Below, one piece after another: positions 6,665 to 19,559 of a stretch of 30,248 nt of DNA. The position numbers were made by a program, and so were the translations under genes. The stretch lies in IMG/VR virus record IMGVR_UViG_3300030319_000074, positions 1 to 30,248 of that record. The stretch is one strand, 5' to 3'. Below the pieces are notes generated by a model. That model saw nothing but the letters and a program-made list of their open reading frames with translations. It had not been told where the DNA came from and ran no database searches. The number at the start of each line of letters is the position of its first letter. The first letter of the stretch is position 1. Source of the DNA: a virus.

Positions 6665-8320
6665 TCACGCTCCGTTCTGTAGCTGTATGCCGTATTGGTC
6701 GTAGTATTTCTGCCGGACAGTGAAGGCATCTGCCAGAGCCGCACAGCCGTCAATGTGTGCGTTGGCAGACAGCTTTACCAGTTTGCCCCGTCCTCGTTCG
6801 TTGTTCATTTTGATTGCTGCATTCAGCAGATGCAGCTTTAACAGGTCGTTGTCACCGATGCAAATTTTTTTGTCCTTGAACAGTCCTTCCATTTCCAACA
6901 GCACCGGATAAAGGTTGTCACCCTGATACACATCATCGGTGCAGAATCCATACGTTTTCAAGTCCTGAATCAGGTACTGTGCAGAGTAACGGTCATATCC
7001 CACCATTAGCGGATAGATCTCATACTGTTCGATCATGTTGCACAGCCAACGATAGCAGTCATGGTAATCCACAAAGTTTTCGCCGGACAGTTCCAGCAAG
7101 CCACGCTGCACATAGATCTGATAGGGAACACCGTCCCGTGCAGTGGCTTCCTCCAGTTTTTCCGGCGGCAGCCAGAACTTTGCAAACACATACAGCACAC
7201 CGCCTTTTTCAATGACGATCGTTGCTGCTGTCAAGTCCGTGGTCTGTGACAAGTCTACGCCGGCAACGCAATAGCTGCCCCGGAATTCTTCCAGATGCAG
7301 CGGCTTTCCGCAGGCATGTTCCACTGCCGTTGCCTTTAGCCATGCCTGAGAACTGGACTGTTTGACGTTGCAGTATTTTGTGAGAAATTCCGCTTTCTTG
7401 GACAAGCTGCCCTCTGCAACTGCGATTTCTTCCAGCATATAATCTACCGATACAGAAACACCCAGATTCGGATTGGATTTTCGCAGTTCATTGATGTCGT
7501 TCCACTTCTCAATGTCATCGATCATGTATAGCAGGGGAAACAGCCGTTTTTCTTTACTGTCGCCTTTCAGAAATCGGGTGCACCGCTTGATCAGTTCATC
7601 ATAAATGCCGTCATTGACGTATCCAGAGGTTGAACAACTCAGCAACAGCGGCTGCCGTCTGGCTCCAAATGCGGACTTCATGACCTCGTACTGTTTCAAT
7701 CCGGTGTCTCCAGGCCAGCTTGCAATCTCATCACAGATGACCAGATGCGGATTGAATCCGTCAGACTTCTTAGCGTTAAATGCAATTTTCTTGACGCTGC
7801 TGTTGGTGGATTCCACATAGTAGTCAGACTTACGCCGCTTGATCAGATCCATTAGTTCCGGTTCGCTGGCAATGGTTTGCCAAATATCGTGATAGACAAT
7901 ATCTGCCTGATCCAGCTTGGGAGCAACGCAAAATATACGGGCACCATATTCGCCGTCCATGAATAGACAGTACACAGCAATGCCGGATAAAAACAGTGTC
8001 TTGCCGTTTTTCCGCCCGACAACAATCGGGACTTCCCGAAACTGCCGGTTGCCATTGTGATCCAGAATGCCGAATATGACCGAAACACAAGCACGCTGCC
8101 ACAGTTCCAGCCGGAGCAGCTGCGGTGCAAGTGCACCCTCGCTGTGGTGGCAAAAGCTTTCGATGAACCGAATCGCACGAGATGCTTTCTTCTGGTCAAA
8201 GGTAAATTCGCCGCTTTCCAATCCATGTATCACATAGCGATATGCCAGCCGTACCCATTCGCCAACCGGGATTGTGCCGTCTTCGATCTGCTGATAGTAG
8301 GCGTAAATGTCATTCGTCAT
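6665..8320 (-). CDS. terL: Terminase large subunit
   Basis: 551 aa with a Walker A-like VGRKNGKT and a C-terminal nuclease-type region. It sits between TerS and the portal gene. Confidence 0.9.
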   Translation of the reverse strand: MTNDIYAYYQQIEDGTIPVGEWVRLAYRYVIHGLESGEFTFDQKKASRAIRFIESFCHHSEGALAPQLLRLELWQRACVSVIFGILDHNGNRQFREVPIVVGRKNGKTLFLSGIAVYCLFMDGEYGARIFCVAPKLDQADIVYHDIWQTIASEPELMDLIKRRKSDYYVESTNSSVKKIAFNAKKSDGFNPHLVICDEIASWPGDTGLKQYEVMKSAFGARRQPLLLSCSTSGYVNDGIYDELIKRCTRFLKGDSKEKRLFPLLYMIDDIEKWNDINELRKSNPNLGVSVSVDYMLEEIAVAEGSLSKKAEFLTKYCNVKQSSSQAWLKATAVEHACGKPLHLEEFRGSYCVAGVDLSQTTDLTAATIVIEKGGVLYVFAKFWLPPEKLEEATARDGVPYQIYVQRGLLELSGENFVDYHDCYRWLCNMIEQYEIYPLMVGYDRYSAQYLIQDLKTYGFCTDDVYQGDNLYPVLLEMEGLFKDKKICIGDNDLLKLHLLNAAIKMNNERGRGKLVKLSANAHIDGCAALADAFTVRQKYYDQYGIQLQNGA

Positions 8321-10406: not shown

Positions 10407-10610
10407 TTATTTCCTCCGTTTCTTGTACAGATCCCATTTTACTTTTCTGGCGGATTCTGCGAGAAATATGGTCGGGTCTGCAAGCTGCTCCTGCTTTCGA
10501 TTCTCCCGTATCTTCTCACGCTGCTTTGCGTACCGGATATATCGGTCACACATACTATGGCAGCCGATTTCACGTTCCAGACAGTTCTTGCATGGTGCTG
10601 TCATGGTCAA
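10407..10610 (-). CDS. Small Cys/His-rich hypothetical protein
   Basis: 67 aa with a CKNCLEREIGCHSMCDRY motif and a basic C-terminus. Its start overlaps the stop of the upstream gene. Confidence 0.6.
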   Translation of the reverse strand: MTMTAPCKNCLEREIGCHSMCDRYIRYAKQREKIRENRKQEQLADPTIFLAESARKVKWDLYKKRRK

Positions 10611-11140
10611 CCTCCAGATTTCGCATCACTTTTTTCAGGTTCATCAGCTGCCATTTTCAGCAGCCGCTTTAACTTCTCATTTTCCTCTTGCAACTCGATG
10701 ATGTATTCATCTTTGTGATCACAATGCACGCAACACAAGCCGGAGATATTTGCAAGCGGACTTTTGATTGCCAAGTTAATTCTCCATTGCTGCAATCGCT
10801 TTATGACACATTCTCGCTCTGCTTTTTCTTTCCGCAGTTTTTCTATGGTTTCAGCGGCGATGAACAGTGACTTGATTGCTTCGGTTGCAATGCTATCCGT
10901 TACTTGATCGGAAAGCTTTTTTCGTTTCCCAGTTTCATTTTCCTGTTGCCGTCTGTTCCAAGCCAGACACGCCTTGTACTTATTCTCATACCATTCGCCG
11001 GTGCTGTTATGCACGCCGCATTTAGAACAGAACAGCTTGTAATCATGTCCCTCACTAGGGTCAATTTCATAAATATCGCTGATTACGGGAACAGCACCAC
11101 ATACTGCACACCGCATCAGATGTTCTACCAGTTTTCCCAT
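10607..11140 (-). CDS. Lar-family (restriction alleviation)-like zinc-ribbon protein with coiled-coil C-terminal half
   Basis: The N-terminus CAVCG...YKLFCSKCGVHNSTGEWYENKYKACLAWNRR matches the Lar-family pattern C-x2-C...C-x2-C...A-x2-WNRR. Confidence 0.5.
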   Translation of the reverse strand: MGKLVEHLMRCAVCGAVPVISDIYEIDPSEGHDYKLFCSKCGVHNSTGEWYENKYKACLAWNRRQQENETGKRKKLSDQVTDSIATEAIKSLFIAAETIEKLRKEKAERECVIKRLQQWRINLAIKSPLANISGLCCVHCDHKDEYIIELQEENEKLKRLLKMAADEPEKSDAKSGG

Positions 11141-11141
11141 G

Positions 11142-11579
11142 TTACCACCTCTCTTGTCCTTTTGGGCTTAATGCCATTGCTTCTGAAATGTCCACGATCC
11201 GCACATACAGTCCGGGGTGTTCCTTGTGCCAGATTTTTTCGATGTGCTCTCTGGCTACCAGTGCATCATCTTTCCAGTATCCCAAACCGGTCATGACATC
11301 TTTCAACGCTTTGTTCAGATTGTCTGTGTCCGGTCGGGTGGTCTTATACTCGCCGTCAACGTGCGTCTTTCCCTTGTACGGGAATCGCCATGTGACATAC
11401 AGTGCCACTGCTCCGGTCAGCGGCTTTCTGGGCGTATACGGTGCAAGCACCAGCCGGAGCAGCTGTTTCGCCGCTTTTGCCTGTTTGCTTTCGTATACAA
11501 TCACTCTGCCGTTTTTTTGAGTGTACTGCTTTTCTTGGGCGGTGGAACGGGGCGGGTCAAACTGTACGTTGATTTCCAT
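11142..11579 (-). CDS. rusA: RusA-family Holliday junction resolvase
   Basis: 145 aa. The segment TTRPDTDNLNKALKDVMTGLGYWKDDALV is the characteristic RusA motif. RBS AGGAGG. Confidence 0.85.
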   Translation of the reverse strand: MEINVQFDPPRSTAQEKQYTQKNGRVIVYESKQAKAAKQLLRLVLAPYTPRKPLTGAVALYVTWRFPYKGKTHVDGEYKTTRPDTDNLNKALKDVMTGLGYWKDDALVAREHIEKIWHKEHPGLYVRIVDISEAMALSPKGQERW

Positions 11580-12288
11580 GAGTATCCTCCTGCTCTGTGT
11601 TAAAGATCAGCTGCCGCACAGCATCATCTCTGCCGCCCCATTGCTGTGCCATGGCTTGTGCGACGCCTAAAAACGTCTTGCTCCTGCTTTTGGCTCTGTC
11701 TTTTGTAAAAAGCCCTTTATGCTTGGCATTGTGCTTATGGCTGTAGCTGCCGGATGGGCAAAAAGTACTGATAGGCTCGACTGTTTCGGTTGGCACCAGC
11801 TTCGGAAGATTTTTCAGCCAAAGGCATGTCCTTTTGCTGTACGGATGCCCGAATTCATACGGCTGTATAGTCTGCGTATATCTCGGCAGCTCATACACTT
11901 TGCTCGGGACAGGATTTTCGACGCAGATTCTTTCGCAGTCTGCATTCAAAAATTCCATAAAAAAAGCTTTGCCCGTCAATCCTTTTTCGTACCGTTCCCG
12001 ATTCAAAACGTGATTTTTCCACAGATGTCTTGCTCCCGCATTGCTGAGATAGGTGCACGGCGGATGTGCAATCAGTATATCCCATCTTCTGTCTATTGTA
12101 TGTGACTTTCCGTCACACGTAGTAAATGTGCACTTCCCATTTATCAGAGGGATAACATCCTGCATAATATGCCACTCTGGATGTCCGCCGGAGCACTTCT
12201 GCACGTCACAGCTGTATGCTTCGTGTCCTAGCACTCTAAATGCGGTACACACTCTTTGAGATTCTTCACATGCTACCAGTACTTTCAT
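11557..12288 (-). CDS. DNA cytosine-C5 methyltransferase-like protein, atypical motif I
   Basis: It has AHPPCTYLSNAG (motif IV-like PC), ENPV (motif VI-like) and FLGVAQAMAQQW (motif X-like). The N-terminus reads VLVACEESQ instead of the usual F-x-G-x-G. Confidence 0.55.
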   Translation of the reverse strand: MKVLVACEESQRVCTAFRVLGHEAYSCDVQKCSGGHPEWHIMQDVIPLINGKCTFTTCDGKSHTIDRRWDILIAHPPCTYLSNAGARHLWKNHVLNRERYEKGLTGKAFFMEFLNADCERICVENPVPSKVYELPRYTQTIQPYEFGHPYSKRTCLWLKNLPKLVPTETVEPISTFCPSGSYSHKHNAKHKGLFTKDRAKSRSKTFLGVAQAMAQQWGGRDDAVRQLIFNTEQEDTHGNQRTV

Positions 12289-13360
12289 TTTCTTTCACCT
12301 CTTCCAGGCATCCGGGAAAAGCCAGTTGCTTTGGCTCGTAGTACTCATCTTCCCACTCGACACCAATCCAGTCCAGCACACGTCCCCAGCCGTATTTCTC
12401 CCCATTTGCATCAGTACAGCAGCGGTACATCCAGTACTCCCACTCTTTGGGATTGTCCTCCCGCAGACGGTCAAACCGATGCGGGCGTTTTTCGATATGG
12501 ATACCGAAGCCACACATGGAACAGCCTGTGCGTTGTGCTCTTGTGGTGTACAACGTCCCGTCAGGCTTTCTTGCGATTTCGCCGTATGCTCTCGGTACTG
12601 GTACATCCAGATCAATCGCCAGCTGTAGCAGATCTTGTCTGGTGAAAGTCGCAAACGGGCAGCTTCTGGTCACGTTTTTTCCGTAGTAATTGCACCCGTT
12701 TTTTATCAACGCCATTTCCCGTTGTCCGCCTTCCGATGCCATAAGTCCAAGATACGGCACGCTGTTGTGTGCTTTTGCCCAGTCATCACAAGGCTTTTCT
12801 TTCATGTAGTAGCAGCATCGAGATGACACTTGAAAATCCGGTGCCGGTCTGATTTCCAGATCTGGCCTCATGTCGCGGTAGTTACCACCAAAAAGCTTGA
12901 TCCACTTGTCTTGCAGCTTGATGCGGTCACTGTGCTTATATCCGCCCTGCTTGCCCATATCTCCGGTCATGATCGCATGGATAAACGTCTGCTTTTCTGC
13001 ATCCGGATGTAGCAGATAACTGATTTTGGTCGCCTTTGCCTTGCTTACCACAGGAAACCCGAGTTGCTGCAAGACCTGTGCCTTGCCCATGTACGGCTTG
13101 ATACTGATCACGCCAAGCTGCTTGTGAACCTCCTGATTTCCCTTGTCCTCCAGTACACTGACGGAAATTGCCGGCACATCAATGCCGATGCTCCGCAAAA
13201 AAACCAGCAGCGTGATGCTGTCCAGTCCACCGACGCTGACATGGCACTCTTTGCCCTCTCTGGTGATCTTCTTATAAAACTCCCACGCTCTGCATTCAAC
13301 AAATGTTAATTTCTGTGCATACGGCAACGACTGGATTTGCAAAAAATCCCTGATGTTCAT
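12266..13360 (-). CDS. PAPS reductase / PP-loop ATP pyrophosphatase family protein (DndC/IbrA-like)
   Basis: PP-loop-like HVSVGGLDSITLL and a C-terminal RTGCSMCGFGIHIE...RFDRL. I prefer the ATG at 13360 (GAGGTGA 8 nt upstream) over the TTG at 13384. Confidence 0.8.
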   Translation of the reverse strand: MNIRDFLQIQSLPYAQKLTFVECRAWEFYKKITREGKECHVSVGGLDSITLLVFLRSIGIDVPAISVSVLEDKGNQEVHKQLGVISIKPYMGKAQVLQQLGFPVVSKAKATKISYLLHPDAEKQTFIHAIMTGDMGKQGGYKHSDRIKLQDKWIKLFGGNYRDMRPDLEIRPAPDFQVSSRCCYYMKEKPCDDWAKAHNSVPYLGLMASEGGQREMALIKNGCNYYGKNVTRSCPFATFTRQDLLQLAIDLDVPVPRAYGEIARKPDGTLYTTRAQRTGCSMCGFGIHIEKRPHRFDRLREDNPKEWEYWMYRCCTDANGEKYGWGRVLDWIGVEWEDEYYEPKQLAFPGCLEEVKENESTGSM

Positions 13361-13368
13361 GATTGTTT

Positions 13369-14160
13369 TCACCTCAATCTCCAATTCTTTTCATCACTTC
13401 TCATTATCGCGAACAGATACCCGCCGCAGCGTTCCTTGATACGTCCTGCCAACGCTTTGTCCGCCGCCAGCAGATCCCGAAAGATGCGCTCACTGGAAAC
13501 GATGGTGACCATGTTCCGGGTGTACCGCTCATTCAGCAGCTCAAACGCAATGCTGATTTCTTTTGGATTTGTATCACTGACATTGCCGCCGATCGGCTTC
13601 AGGAAATCGTCTATGTACAACACTTGTGCCTGTGTCAGCTGCTGAAAACGTTCCTGTCTGGTAGCAAATTGGCTTAGATCGCGAAAAACTGTCTGCCACA
13701 TCTCATACCGCACTTGCAGTCCTCTCTGGAGCAGGACACCACAGACAGCAGTGCACAGATGCGTTTTGCCTGCTCCACTTTGTCCGCCGATATACAGCCA
13801 TTGCGAACGGTTCTTTTCCGCATAGTGCATCACGTTTTCTTTCAGTGCGGTTTGCCAGTCTTCTTTGCACTGATATGCATCAAATGTTTTGGTGCGTATC
13901 GTTTCTGCCAATCCGGACTGTGTGATGTTGGACTGATTCTGCCGAATCGCCATGCACTCGCAGATACGGTGCATTTCTACGCCGTCCTGCAAGTAGGCGA
14001 TGCTGCCCTTGTTCCGGCACTTAGGGCAATCATATCCGGTAAGGCTGCCCCGTGATTGATTGTACCAGTCACACCGCATCTTGTCATAGGATTCCGGTGT
14101 GATTCCGGCATCAGAATTTTGTTTCCCAGCGATCTGCAACAGGTTCTGAATTGCTTCCAT
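13369..14160 (-). CDS. DnaC/IstB-like AAA+ helicase loader with N-terminal zinc ribbon
   Basis: Walker A GGQSGAGKTH, Walker B VLYIDDF, and CPKCRNKG...CEC near the N-terminus. I prefer the ATG at 14160 (GGAGGTG 6 nt upstream). Confidence 0.8.
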   Translation of the reverse strand: MEAIQNLLQIAGKQNSDAGITPESYDKMRCDWYNQSRGSLTGYDCPKCRNKGSIAYLQDGVEMHRICECMAIRQNQSNITQSGLAETIRTKTFDAYQCKEDWQTALKENVMHYAEKNRSQWLYIGGQSGAGKTHLCTAVCGVLLQRGLQVRYEMWQTVFRDLSQFATRQERFQQLTQAQVLYIDDFLKPIGGNVSDTNPKEISIAFELLNERYTRNMVTIVSSERIFRDLLAADKALAGRIKERCGGYLFAIMRSDEKNWRLR

Positions 14161-14920
14161 ACTTTTCACCTCCACGGTTCCACTCACTCCGCTCCCACGT
14201 TCTCACAGCTGCTTTCCAGTCTTTCATAGGGGACTTTCCAACACGCCATCCGTTTGATTCATAGTAATTCCAAAATCGTTCTGGATCTACGCTGTTTTGC
14301 CTGCTCTGACAGTAGACTCTGATATCTTCCAGCGTTGGCTTTACAAATCGTTTTTTGGGAGGGTGTGTGTCAGTCGGCTTGTCCGACTGTGCACCTGTAC
14401 TCTCCCTCTTATCTACTCTTATCTTATCTTCTCTACTCTTCTCTACGTTACCTGTAACGTTACAAGGCGTTTCTCCTGTGTTACATTGTAACATTTCAGG
14501 CATTTCTGCTGTACAAGGCAACGCAACAGTAACTTCTGCTTCCAGTTGTTTCTGCTTTTGTTTTTCACGGAATTTCCGTACTCTTTCCGCGCTGCTGCTT
14601 TCCGAGCCAATGGCTTCATTGGCTTCCGGCATAAAGTAAACTGATTTACTTTTTTCAATCAACTTGCCGGAGCGCAGCAGAAAACCGATTGCAACTCTGA
14701 CATTATCTTCATCTTCGTCCAGGGCAAGTGCCAGTTCAGCCGCAAAGTCGTTTTCAATGCCGTCAAAGTACAGTTCGCCCTCTGTCTGAATGCTCATCAG
14801 CATCATTTTTAGATAGATGATGACATAGGTGTCACCTCCGGCAATGCGCCGCATTTTCTTCATGGCTTTATCGCGGAAAAAGTCTTCCCGGAGTTTCAGC
14901 CAAAAATATCTTCTTGACAT
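14111..14920 (-). CDS. Phage replisome organizer (DnaD-like N-terminal domain)
   Basis: The N-terminus MSRRYFWLKLREDFFRDKAMKKMRRIAGGDTYVIIYLKMML matches the phage replisome-organizer N-terminal family. It lies upstream of the DnaC-like loader. Confidence 0.75.
   Translation of the reverse strand: MSRRYFWLKLREDFFRDKAMKKMRRIAGGDTYVIIYLKMMLMSIQTEGELYFDGIENDFAAELALALDEDEDNVRVAIGFLLRSGKLIEKSKSVYFMPEANEAIGSESSSAERVRKFREKQKQKQLEAEVTVALPCTAEMPEMLQCNTGETPCNVTGNVEKSREDKIRVDKRESTGAQSDKPTDTHPPKKRFVKPTLEDIRVYCQSRQNSVDPERFWNYYESNGWRVGKSPMKDWKAAVRTWERSEWNRGGEKYGSNSEPVADRWETKF
14371..14520. repeat. Cluster of inverted and direct repeats inside the replisome organizer gene (candidate origin)
   Basis: Inverted repeats: CAGTCGG-5-CCGACTG (14371-14389), ACGTTAC-ct-GTAACGT (14445-14460), the palindrome GTAACGTTAC (14454-14463) and TGTTACA-t-TGTAACA (14479-14493). 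Direct repeats: CTACTCTT twice (14413, 14433) and TACAAGGC twice (14461, 14512). Confidence 0.4.
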
Positions 14921-16714: not shown

Positions 16715-16832
16715 CTAACGTTCTGTTAGGATTATAACACACGTTCCGTTAGAATGTCAATAGTAATTCTAACTTTTCGTTAGTATACACAAAACGTGAG
16801 CGATTTTATTGACAATTCTAACAGTTTGTGAT
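16715..16832. promoter_or_regulatory. Operator set: 15-bp CTAAC-N5-GTTAG palindromes
   Basis: Perfect copies at 16715-16729 and 16769-16783. Degenerate copies at 16738-16752 (CACAC-N5-GTTAG) and 16818-16832 (CTAAC-N5-GTGAT). They overlap both promoters. Confidence 0.5.
16731..16760 (-). promoter_or_regulatory. Early lytic promoter (TTGACA-18 nt-TATAAT with TGn)
   Basis: The minus strand has TTGACA (plus 16755-16760) and TGtTATAAT (TATAAT at plus 16731-16736). Confidence 0.6.
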
Positions 16833-16837
16833 ATTAT
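16809..16837 (+). promoter_or_regulatory. Lysogeny-operon promoter (TTGACA-17 nt-TATTAT)
   Basis: TTGACA at 16809-16814 and TATTAT at 16832-16837, upstream of the repressor RBS. Confidence 0.6.
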
Positions 16838-18983: not shown

Positions 18984-19559
18984 ATGAAATACTGTATGAA
19001 TTGCGGTACGCAAAATGAGGATACGGCAAAACACTGTTCTAACTGCGGCAAAGCATTCCCAGCTCCGCAGCCAGACTTCATCGCTCCGAATCTTCCGGAT
19101 CCGGATGACTGGCACTGGGATAAGTCGAAAAAACGGCATAAAAAATCCCACCATTCGTCAGGACGAAAAGTGGGTGCTGGGTTCGGCTGTCTGGTCGTCA
19201 TTGTCGTAGTTGCCGCTGTGATCACAGTGCTGTGTATGCTGTTTTCCAACGGGAAAAGTAAGAACGATGCCGCTGTAAAGCCGCAGTCCAGTTCAGAAGC
19301 GGAACAGCCGGCTGACAGTGGTATGATTTCTCCGGAACTGTTTCGGGGCATTCTGGAAGATTCGTTTCAAAACCAAGAGGGGTTGTCTGATGTATCTGTA
19401 CAGTATGACAGTGATCTGAATTATTACACGATCAATCTGACGGCAGACGGCATCGTTGTAGATGTGACAAAGTCCAAGCTGACCGGGGACATCCAGAAAT
19501 GGAATGAGTTGCTGTCTGTCATGAATGGTACGACATTGTATGATTGCATGGAGGAATGA
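18984..19559 (+). CDS. Zinc-ribbon, single-pass membrane protein (candidate superinfection-exclusion factor)
   Basis: It has MKYCMNCGTQNEDTAKHCSNCG, then a TM helix GFGCLVVIVVVAAVITVLCMLF and a C-terminal domain of about 100 aa. The start is 3 nt after the upstream stop. Confidence 0.65.
   Translation: MKYCMNCGTQNEDTAKHCSNCGKAFPAPQPDFIAPNLPDPDDWHWDKSKKRHKKSHHSSGRKVGAGFGCLVVIVVVAAVITVLCMLFSNGKSKNDAAVKPQSSSEAEQPADSGMISPELFRGILEDSFQNQEGLSDVSVQYDSDLNYYTINLTADGIVVDVTKSKLTGDIQKWNELLSVMNGTTLYDCMEE

Follow-up and report, generated by a model that had tools for sequence, protein, structure and literature searches.

A PAPS-methyltransferase coupling in a phage has been described for the Vibrio crassostreae podophage 44E38.1, whose protein p0018 joins an N-terminal phosphoadenosine phosphosulfate (PAPS) reductase domain to a C-terminal Dam methyltransferase (bioRxiv 10.1101/2021.05.05.442762; Piel et al., Nat Microbiol 2022). 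When p0018 and p0019 were moved into a sensitive phage, that phage could infect a Dnd-carrying host (bioRxiv 10.1101/2021.05.05.442762), and a later citation states that phage PAPS reductase promotes Dnd evasion and lists PAPS reductases among candidate anti-defence genes (PMC13551039). Here, we focused on a gene pair in the IMG/VR virus record IMGVR_UViG_3300030319_000074 (positions 1 to 30,248; this whole 30,248-nucleotide stretch is referred to as the window). One gene encodes a 364-aa PAPS-reductase-like PP-loop protein, and the other a 243-aa protein with a predicted C5-methyltransferase fold, referred to as mini-C5. Both families are already abundant and named in PHROG, and the pairing in the window is a variant of the published coupling. 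A first-pass annotation of this DNA, made from the letters alone, had called the partnership unexplained, although the PAPS-Dam fusion had already been published as part of an anti-Dnd determinant. As in the Vibrio cassette, a PAPS-type domain is physically coupled to a DNA methyltransferase module in a variable phage region: the two window genes overlap by 23 nt, and the domains of their relatives are fused in some proteins. Unlike the Vibrio cassette, the window contains two separate genes, its PP-loop protein is too divergent for the Pfam family PF01507, the place of Dam is taken by a C5-fold mini-enzyme that lacks motif I, and the host is a gut Firmicute.

The 364-aa protein contains the motifs SVGGLDS, CCYYMKEKP, GLMASEGGQRE and TGCSMCGFG and matches phrog_424, annotated as “PAPS reductase,” with an E value of 2.8e-24. 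It had no match at E≤0.1 in Pfam or NCBIfam, including PF01507, the profile that the first-pass annotation had proposed as a check, and phmmer and profile searches against PDB sequences returned only noise. In Foldseek searches with an AlphaFold2 model (mean predicted local distance difference test [pLDDT] of 78), the top matches were adenosine phosphosulfate (APS)/PAPS reductases (4bwv, 1sur and 2goy), although these matches were weak (E=1.3e-3; query TM score of 0.34), and they were followed by further PP-loop proteins, namely GMP synthetase, TtuA, NAD synthetase and LarE. This agrees with the initial description of a PAPS-reductase-like protein with a PP-loop and a C-terminal cysteine cluster. 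Both motifs are also strongly conserved, since S-[VG]-G-G-x-D-S and GCxxCG are found in all 120 homologues inspected and CCxx.K.xP in 118 of them, and five cysteines (C182, C183, C223, C280 and C283) are invariant in the family. Earlier work showed that the iron-sulfur motifs CCXXRKXXPL and SXGCXXCT separate APS from PAPS reductases (PMC3125206) and described DndC with a CC dyad and an iron-sulfur centre held by three cysteines (PMC10853773). Judged by sequence, the cysteine motifs of the family correspond to the APS-reductase iron-sulfur motifs, and the five invariant cysteines may fit the published account of DndC, a comparison made by description. Within the APS-reductase/DndC superfamily, the 364-aa protein is thus probably a PP-loop enzyme with an iron-sulfur centre.

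A comparison with CysH (PF01507; 2goy, 1sur and 4bwv) reveals both the kinship and its limits. The two share a PP-loop-like motif, CCxx(R/M)Kxx(P), GCxxC and a GxRxE(S/G) loop, and CysH structures are the best structural matches. Unlike CysH, the window protein is ∼120 residues longer because of inserts, falls below the Pfam threshold, and is encoded in a context of DNA replication and modification, not of sulfur metabolism. Moreover, an alignment with E. coli CysH shows that the C-terminal ECGLH motif with its catalytic cysteine is missing, and ECG[LIVM]H was found in 0 of the 120 homologues and, among phage proteins with a PF01507 match, in 0 of 113 (233 proteins in total). Because this catalytic motif is missing, the sequence indicates that the protein cannot be a sulfonucleotide reductase of the CysH type. 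This bears directly on the view that the gene is an auxiliary metabolic gene (AMG), i.e., a cysH that boosts assimilatory sulfate reduction of the host. Such a view follows the PHROG and GenBank annotations, which read “phosphoadenosine phosphosulfate reductase,” and the virome literature, which treats phage PAPS reductases as AMGs (PMC13369170). We consider it highly improbable, given the loss of the ECGLH tail in the window protein and in all 233 phage homologues examined, the failure of PF01507 to match the window protein, the position of the gene within a replication/recombination module beside DNA methyltransferases, and the absence of cysteine-pathway genes among the recurrent neighbouring gene clusters.

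The second group of relatives comprises DndC, SspD and BrxP, which have in common with the PAPS-like protein the PP-loop and an association with DNA-modification genes and, going by the published description of DndC, may also share the CC dyad and further cysteines consistent with an iron-sulfur centre. The likeness to DndC and BrxP put forward in the first-pass annotation does not extend to the profile level, since the PADLOC profiles of DndC, SspD and BrxP gave no match at E≤0.1 and the sole match was a partial one to QueC (0.0084). Unlike these proteins, the PAPS-like protein stands alone in most phages. The partner genes DndD/DndE, SspB/SspC, DUF4007 and cysteine desulfurase are absent from the neighbourhood of the block, where the actual neighbours encode a replisome organiser, a DnaC-like loader, mini-C5, RusA and a Lar-like protein. 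An AAA_23 ATPase, often found after the PAPS-like gene elsewhere, was considered as a DndD analogue and judged less likely, because it is part of a common AAA_23-AAA_24-helicase-primase replication module that also occurs without the PAPS-like gene. A passage of PMC12914056 places phosphorothioate systems (Dnd, Ssp and BREX type 4) in gut Bacillota, so that a target for Dnd-type counter-defence plausibly exists in gut hosts.

The partner of the PP-loop protein, mini-C5, matches phrog_757 (“DNA methyltransferase”) with an E value of 5.7e-58 and carries the motifs ACEESQ, HPPCTYLSNAG and ENPV, as well as SCD, H40 and D44. Searches of PDB sequences with phmmer and with a profile of the mini-C5 family yielded only noise, and its fold assignment comes from structure prediction, which the first-pass annotation had suggested. 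With an AlphaFold2 model of mean pLDDT 80.6, each of the 50 Foldseek PDB matches listed is a C5 DNA methyltransferase or a putative DNA-modification methyltransferase (E from 1.4e-5; query TM score of ∼0.4), including M.HaeIII, DNMT1, DNMT3A/B, M.HhaI and 3g7u, and a structural search of BFVD retrieved mainly viral C5 methyltransferases. According to this model, the 243-aa protein has a C5-methyltransferase fold.

To describe the family further, we collected the residues that are invariant across distant members, which are C7, E8, S10, S26, C27, D28, H40, D44, D70, P76-P77-C78-T79, E124-N125-P126, P143, G147, K152, T154 and W157. In comparison with canonical C5 methyltransferases (PF00145; M.HhaI, M.HaeIII and DNMT3A), mini-C5 shares the fold, the Pro-Cys nucleophile of motif IV (HPPCTY), the ENx of motif VI (ENP), the acidic residue of strand 2, the motif III Asp and a motif X-like C-terminal helix. 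Unlike them, it has C7-E8-x-S10-[Q/G] (ACEESQ in the window) in place of the F-x-G-x-G of motif I throughout the family, as the first-pass annotation had recognized for the window protein. The motif VIII QxRxR is also missing and is replaced by SKRTCLW, where K152 and T154 are invariant (K-x-T) and no Arg pair is found, with the register set by a predicted strand at 154-159. A target-recognition domain is absent as well; instead, there is only a variable linker of ∼40 residues with a pLDDT of ∼50. Mini-C5 amounts to only ∼215 residues and falls below every sequence-profile threshold. In canonical C5 enzymes, two acidic positions, at the end of strand 2 and after strand 3, hold the ribose and adenine of S-adenosylmethionine (SAM), and in the register given by predicted secondary structure D28 and D44 would take these positions. 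Since the loss of motif I is shared by the whole family, the sequences identify it as a conserved alternative instead of local decay.

The mini-C5 family is large, with at least 4395 representatives of 50%-identity clusters matching at E≤1e-3, and 161 phage records carry it, among them P-SSP7 (gp12), Arthrobacter, Flavobacterium, Vibrio and Pseudomonas phages and Microviridae. Within PHROG 757, which includes P-SSP7 gp12, Bcep1 gp12-like proteins, Arthrobacter and Flavobacterium “DNA methyltransferases” and accessory methyltransferases of Microviridae, the window protein is a clear member with all family invariants, and it differs from the others in a C-terminal extension of ∼25 residues and in its PAPS-like neighbour, which most members lack. 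Four proteins of ∼471 aa (P0392, P0393, P0395 and P0396) consist of two mini-C5 domains in tandem, each with ACE[ED]SQ, PPC and ENP, which suggests that the single-domain enzyme acts as a dimer; such a dimer could compensate for the missing recognition domain. We also found mini-C5 as an accessory gene in single-stranded DNA Microviridae with genomes of 5.6-6.8 kb (L176, MG945386.1, 3790-4362; and MG945261.1), and its presence in such tiny genomes implies a strong benefit and a function without a PAPS-like partner. Mini-C5-like domains also occur within very large phage proteins, such as the BFVD entries A0A6J5NPY6_2 (1126 aa) and A0A6J5SE15_1 (1397 aa), one of which contains a helicase; these are reminiscent of polyvalent anti-restriction proteins. 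In Pseudomonas phage TC6 (L175, 2495-3055), mini-C5 is flanked by nrdB and nrdA, which encode the beta and alpha subunits of ribonucleotide reductase, with ThyX and a thioredoxin-like gene close by, and in a Rhizobium phage it adjoins a ribonucleotide reductase gene. Such a setting among genes of nucleotide metabolism is not what one would expect of a DNA methyltransferase.

These last two settings, together with the short low-confidence linker where a target-recognition domain would be, allow a reading in which mini-C5 acts on free nucleotides or RNA and not on DNA, which would explain why both the recognition domain and QxRxR are missing. We regard such a role as quite improbable, given that the structural neighbours among the matches listed are DNA C5 methyltransferases, that in temperate phages mini-C5 takes a slot filled elsewhere by DNA methyltransferases, that the tandem-domain proteins suggest a DNA-binding dimer like DNMT3, and that mini-C5-like domains are found inside large helicase-containing phage proteins.

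Having characterized both proteins, we assessed the linkage of their genes in 80 IMG/VR loci per gene around homologues, covering 6 kb on each side, in which all open reading frames (ORFs) were clustered. Among the mini-C5 loci, 5/80 contain a member of the same PAPS-like family and 10/80 a member of a second, PF01507-positive PAPS family (15/80 together). In turn, mini-C5 was detected by tblastn in 12/80 of the PAPS-like loci, and, by ORF cluster, 30/80 of these loci have a gene of some methyltransferase class within 6 kb: mini-C5 in 13, canonical PF00145 C5 enzymes in 10, and a fusion of an SNF2-related helicase with an N6_N4_Mtase domain in 11. The latter fusion (cluster 16; ∼840-860 aa, 1160 aa in L142) is located at or within ∼3 gene positions of the PAPS-like gene in L118-L120, L124, L132, L134, L142, L143, L152 and L158. 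Adjacency was compared with what placement at random over the co-oriented ORFs within these loci would give (200,000 simulations), with statistics that are indicative only, the loci being metagenomic and phylogenetically nonindependent: a methyltransferase was at most two gene ranks from the PAPS-like gene in 26/30 loci versus 10.9 expected and, after duplicate contexts were collapsed, in 23/26 versus 9.4 expected, a value reached in 0/200,000 simulations. The reverse test, using mini-C5 loci with a PAPS-type gene, gave 12/15 within two ranks versus 5.0 expected. In addition, two full-length proteins fuse a PF01507 domain to mini-C5, namely P0287 (547 aa) and P0391 (596 aa), the second of which has lost the ENP glutamate. 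A third candidate, P0185, was not counted as a C5-methyltransferase-PAPS fusion, since it contains a canonical methyltransferase only as a C-terminal fragment and, lying on a 4-kb contig, may be a gene-call or frameshift artefact.

The linkage for which the first-pass annotation had proposed co-occurrence statistics is therefore borne out, as adjacency above chance and as fusion, and the partnership it drew stands in part: the link between the PAPS-like and mini-C5 genes is real and recurrent but facultative. By analogy, the fact that other methyltransferases fill the same slot beside the PAPS-like gene elsewhere argues that mini-C5 may play an equivalent role there. In the sole fully syntenic relative of the window (L133), the flanking genes are 88-98% identical, while the mini-C5 allele (7042-7755) is only 58% identical to that of the window; judging from these identities, the slot has been kept and the allele in it swapped.

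Taken together, our reading is that mini-C5 would be an orphan cytosine-modifying enzyme and the PP-loop protein a DndC-like factor for counter-defence or DNA modification, both acting on the same substrate at the same time, and we consider the chances of this reading to be evenly balanced. Under this proposal, two of the four genes of the block would make up a cassette, only loosely coupled, that serves DNA modification or counter-defence, with both enzymes made early and acting on replicating phage DNA. Mini-C5, probably as a dimer, would mark cytosines with low sequence specificity and thereby blunt restriction; in the simplest case, it would protect the replicating phage DNA as a methyltransferase whose SAM loop is unusual. 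The PP-loop enzyme may counter phosphorothioate-dependent or other modification-dependent defences, as reported for the PAPS-Dam fusion of the Vibrio phage. Each gene would work alone, and juxtaposition, translational coupling or fusion would be recurrent but optional; the frequent side-by-side placement or fusion would arise because the two proteins share a substrate and a time of action.

Several observations weigh against this reading. The 243-aa protein has no match in Pfam (E≤0.1) or NCBIfam, not even to PF00145, by which the first-pass annotation had proposed to verify it, PADLOC yielded nothing useful for it either, and an hhalign comparison of the mini-C5 family with canonical phage C5 methyltransferases gave a probability of 3%, with only the motif III-IV region aligned. 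Because motif I and QxRxR are absent from the sequence, SAM binding and a cytosine target are putative, and the nucleotide-metabolism setting in some lytic phages, such as TC6, also fits a nucleotide-level role. Literature searches turned up no biochemical work on either mini-C5 or the PAPS-like proteins of phages; they gave AMG-type statements, the genetics of Piel et al. and a general remark on Microviridae methyltransferases. As for the linkage, its statistics come from the nonindependent metagenomic loci noted above, and in 65-85% of the loci of either family the partner is missing. The mini-C5 homologue closest to that of the window (P0004, 91% identity) belongs to an unrelated serine-recombinase prophage without a PAPS gene, and the closest PAPS-like homologues (L081, 97%; L082, 90%) have no adjacent mini-C5. 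The same holds for the cultured Clostridium phages Villandry and Saumur, which carry the PAPS-like gene without an adjacent mini-C5. With the closest homologues of both genes found unpaired, the link cannot be called obligatory.

These solitary homologues, the many loci without a partner and the 58% identical allele amid conserved flanks in L133, which indicates a swappable cassette, would be expected if the adjacency had no functional meaning. In that case, independent accessory genes would have gathered in a recombination-prone early slot, mini-C5 would be an ordinary orphan methyltransferase, and the role of the PP-loop protein would be unrelated. We take this to be unlikely, while counting it as the most serious competitor of a shared function, given that methyltransferases lie within two positions of the PAPS-like gene far above random placement, that three unrelated methyltransferase classes recur in the same position, that two-domain fusion proteins exist, and that the PAPS-Dam pair provides an experimental precedent.

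A different alternative would tie the two enzymes more closely together, in that they would jointly install a non-methyl mark on DNA, either sulfur-containing or otherwise adenylate-activated. The PP-loop/iron-sulfur enzyme would activate or relay the group, the catalytic Cys of mini-C5 would flip and activate a pyrimidine, and the former SAM pocket of mini-C5 (invariant C7, E8, C27, D28 and H40) would have been rebuilt for a different donor. Consistent with this, C-E-x-S replaces the glycine loop family-wide, two further invariant cysteines lie near the cofactor site, QxRxR is lost, fusions with PAPS domains exist, and the iron-sulfur and CC motifs of the PP-loop protein are typical of sulfur-handling relatives. 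However, 81-94% of mini-C5 genes, those in the 5-6 kb genomes of Microviridae included, have no PAPS-type neighbour, so that the cofactor of the enzyme must be a ubiquitous one; D28 and D44, which would bind the adenosine of SAM, are invariant; and the fusion protein P0391 is without the ENP glutamate. We therefore consider a joint mark improbable. To the same low degree, we entertain the broader idea that the mini-C5 family may not consist of SAM-dependent methyltransferases and that, with a PAPS-like partner, it could install a previously unknown phage DNA mark.

The remaining two genes of the block encode RusA and the Lar-like protein. RusA matches PF05866 (1.6e-24; 87.3 bits versus a gathering score of 22.8) and phrog_140 (2.9e-31); it is a recombination/replication gene that resolves recombination junctions and is outside any anti-restriction cassette, in which the first-pass annotation had included it. 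The 177-aa Lar-like protein carries the CxxC...CxxC...AWNRR signature, so that the zinc-ribbon pattern noted in the first-pass annotation is present. Its scores are below the curated thresholds of PF14354 (1.2e-5; 25.8 bits versus a gathering score of 28.6) and TIGR03655 (23 bits versus a cutoff of 39.6), it matches phrog_599 at 1e-5, and in a BLASTP comparison with Lar/RalR of the Rac prophage only WN[KR]R aligns. The Rac lar gene (E. coli K-12 b1348; L177 2234-2428) is now named ralR in RefSeq and annotated as the toxin, an endodeoxyribonuclease, of a type I toxin-antitoxin pair, and the Pfam name “Lar restriction alleviation” may mislead. Given the subthreshold scores, the BLASTP alignment limited to WN[KR]R and the present RalR annotation of the Rac gene, a restriction-alleviation role for the 177-aa protein is a weak lead.

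The coordinates of the block and of its surroundings are collected in Table 1.

Table 1. Genes, gene overlaps and promoters of the window that are discussed in the text.
Feature	Position	Strand	Basis
PP-loop/iron-sulfur “PAPS-reductase-like” protein, 364 aa	12266-13360	minus	phrog_424, motifs, AlphaFold2, Foldseek
Miniature protein with predicted C5-methyltransferase fold (mini-C5), 243 aa	11557-12288	minus	phrog_757, AlphaFold2, Foldseek
RusA Holliday-junction resolvase, 145 aa	11142-11579	minus	PF05866, phrog_140
Lar-like protein, 177 aa: N-terminal zinc ribbon, coiled coil, second CCxxC pair	10607-11140	minus	
Overlap of PAPS-like stop region and mini-C5 start, 23 nt	12266-12288	minus	direct sequence reading
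Overlap of mini-C5 and RusA genes, 23 nt	11557-11579	minus	
Replisome organiser	14111-14920	minus	PF09681 2.3e-19
DnaC/IstB-like loader	13369-14187	minus	PF01695 2.7e-8
Putative early promoter, TTGACA-18-TATAAT with TG	16731-16760	minus	pattern match only
Back-to-back sigma-70 promoter pair	16731-16837		
Cys-rich protein (CxxC...C...C), 67 aa	10407-10610	minus	
RNase_T (DEDDh exonuclease) + BRCT protein, 449 aa	17631-18980	plus	
Zinc-ribbon protein	18984-19559	plus	

All sequence motifs quoted in the first-pass annotation are present, and so are its four ORFs, which it had described as consecutive overlapping early genes. The overlap does not extend to all of them, since RusA and the Lar-like gene are separated by a gap of 1 nt; the Lar-like gene in turn overlaps the next gene downstream by 4 nt. 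The start codon of the PAPS-like gene is an ATG at 13360, with a GAGGTGA ribosome-binding site ahead of it, and mini-C5 has its own GAGGTGA site, located inside the upstream PAPS-like gene. A 372-aa version of the PAPS-like ORF with a TTG start was dropped, given the ribosome-binding site of the ATG and the agreement of an independent gene caller with 364 aa. On a 33-kb contig from a human-gut metagenome, which encodes an identical 243-aa protein, the independent gene caller returned all four products as in the window, and on this related contig the integrase adjoins L-serine dehydratase genes.

As to the timing of expression, the promoter pattern at 16760-16731 is a perfect sigma-70 consensus that points toward the block and diverges from the promoter of the repressor gene, and no convincing terminator was seen between it and the block, in support of the description as early genes. 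The promoter pair of which it is part, located between the repressor gene and the early operon, consists of near-perfect sigma-70 promoters that match the consensus at 12/12 and 11/12 positions and each have an extended −10 TG, and it resembles a textbook lysis-lysogeny switch region. The genes directly upstream of the block encode the replisome organiser and the DnaC-like loader, a stretch (13369-14920) that also matches phrog_50 (1.1e-31), and downstream of the block are small ORFs and the genes for a DUF1492/sigma-r4-like regulator, an HNH protein and the terminase. The window represents a temperate siphovirus whose host is a human-gut Firmicute, and the block is an accessory (“nin-like”) stretch of its early lytic operon, between the replication genes and the late-gene regulators; apart from the gene pair, it is an ordinary accessory region of a temperate phage. 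A megablast search of the block against 50,697 phage records gave zero matches.

Two further observations concern the surroundings of the block. Directly downstream of the Lar-like gene is the gene for the 67-aa Cys-rich protein, which has no family match and whose homologues are found near mini-C5 or PAPS-like genes in six fetched loci (L007, L019, L022, L036, L117 and L133). On the other strand, the genes for the RNase_T/BRCT protein and the zinc-ribbon protein are located between the repressor/metallopeptidase module and the integrase, and they possibly serve superinfection exclusion or defence when expressed from the prophage.

Two points have a wider reach: a huge “methyltransferase” family without a profile model has lost motif I and QxRxR throughout, and phage “PAPS reductases,” by the present indications, are not CysH. 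Mini-C5 is among the most widespread phage “DNA methyltransferases” and has no profile in the Pfam and NCBIfam libraries; its function, once shown, would either make it the smallest DNA C5 methyltransferase known or bring a new activity to light. As for phage “PAPS reductases,” virome studies routinely place them among the auxiliary genes of sulfur metabolism. The missing CysH tail, together with methyltransferase neighbours and fusions, supports the view, held by a minority, that these genes serve DNA modification or counter-defence, and such a view would change the interpretation of a very common “AMG.”

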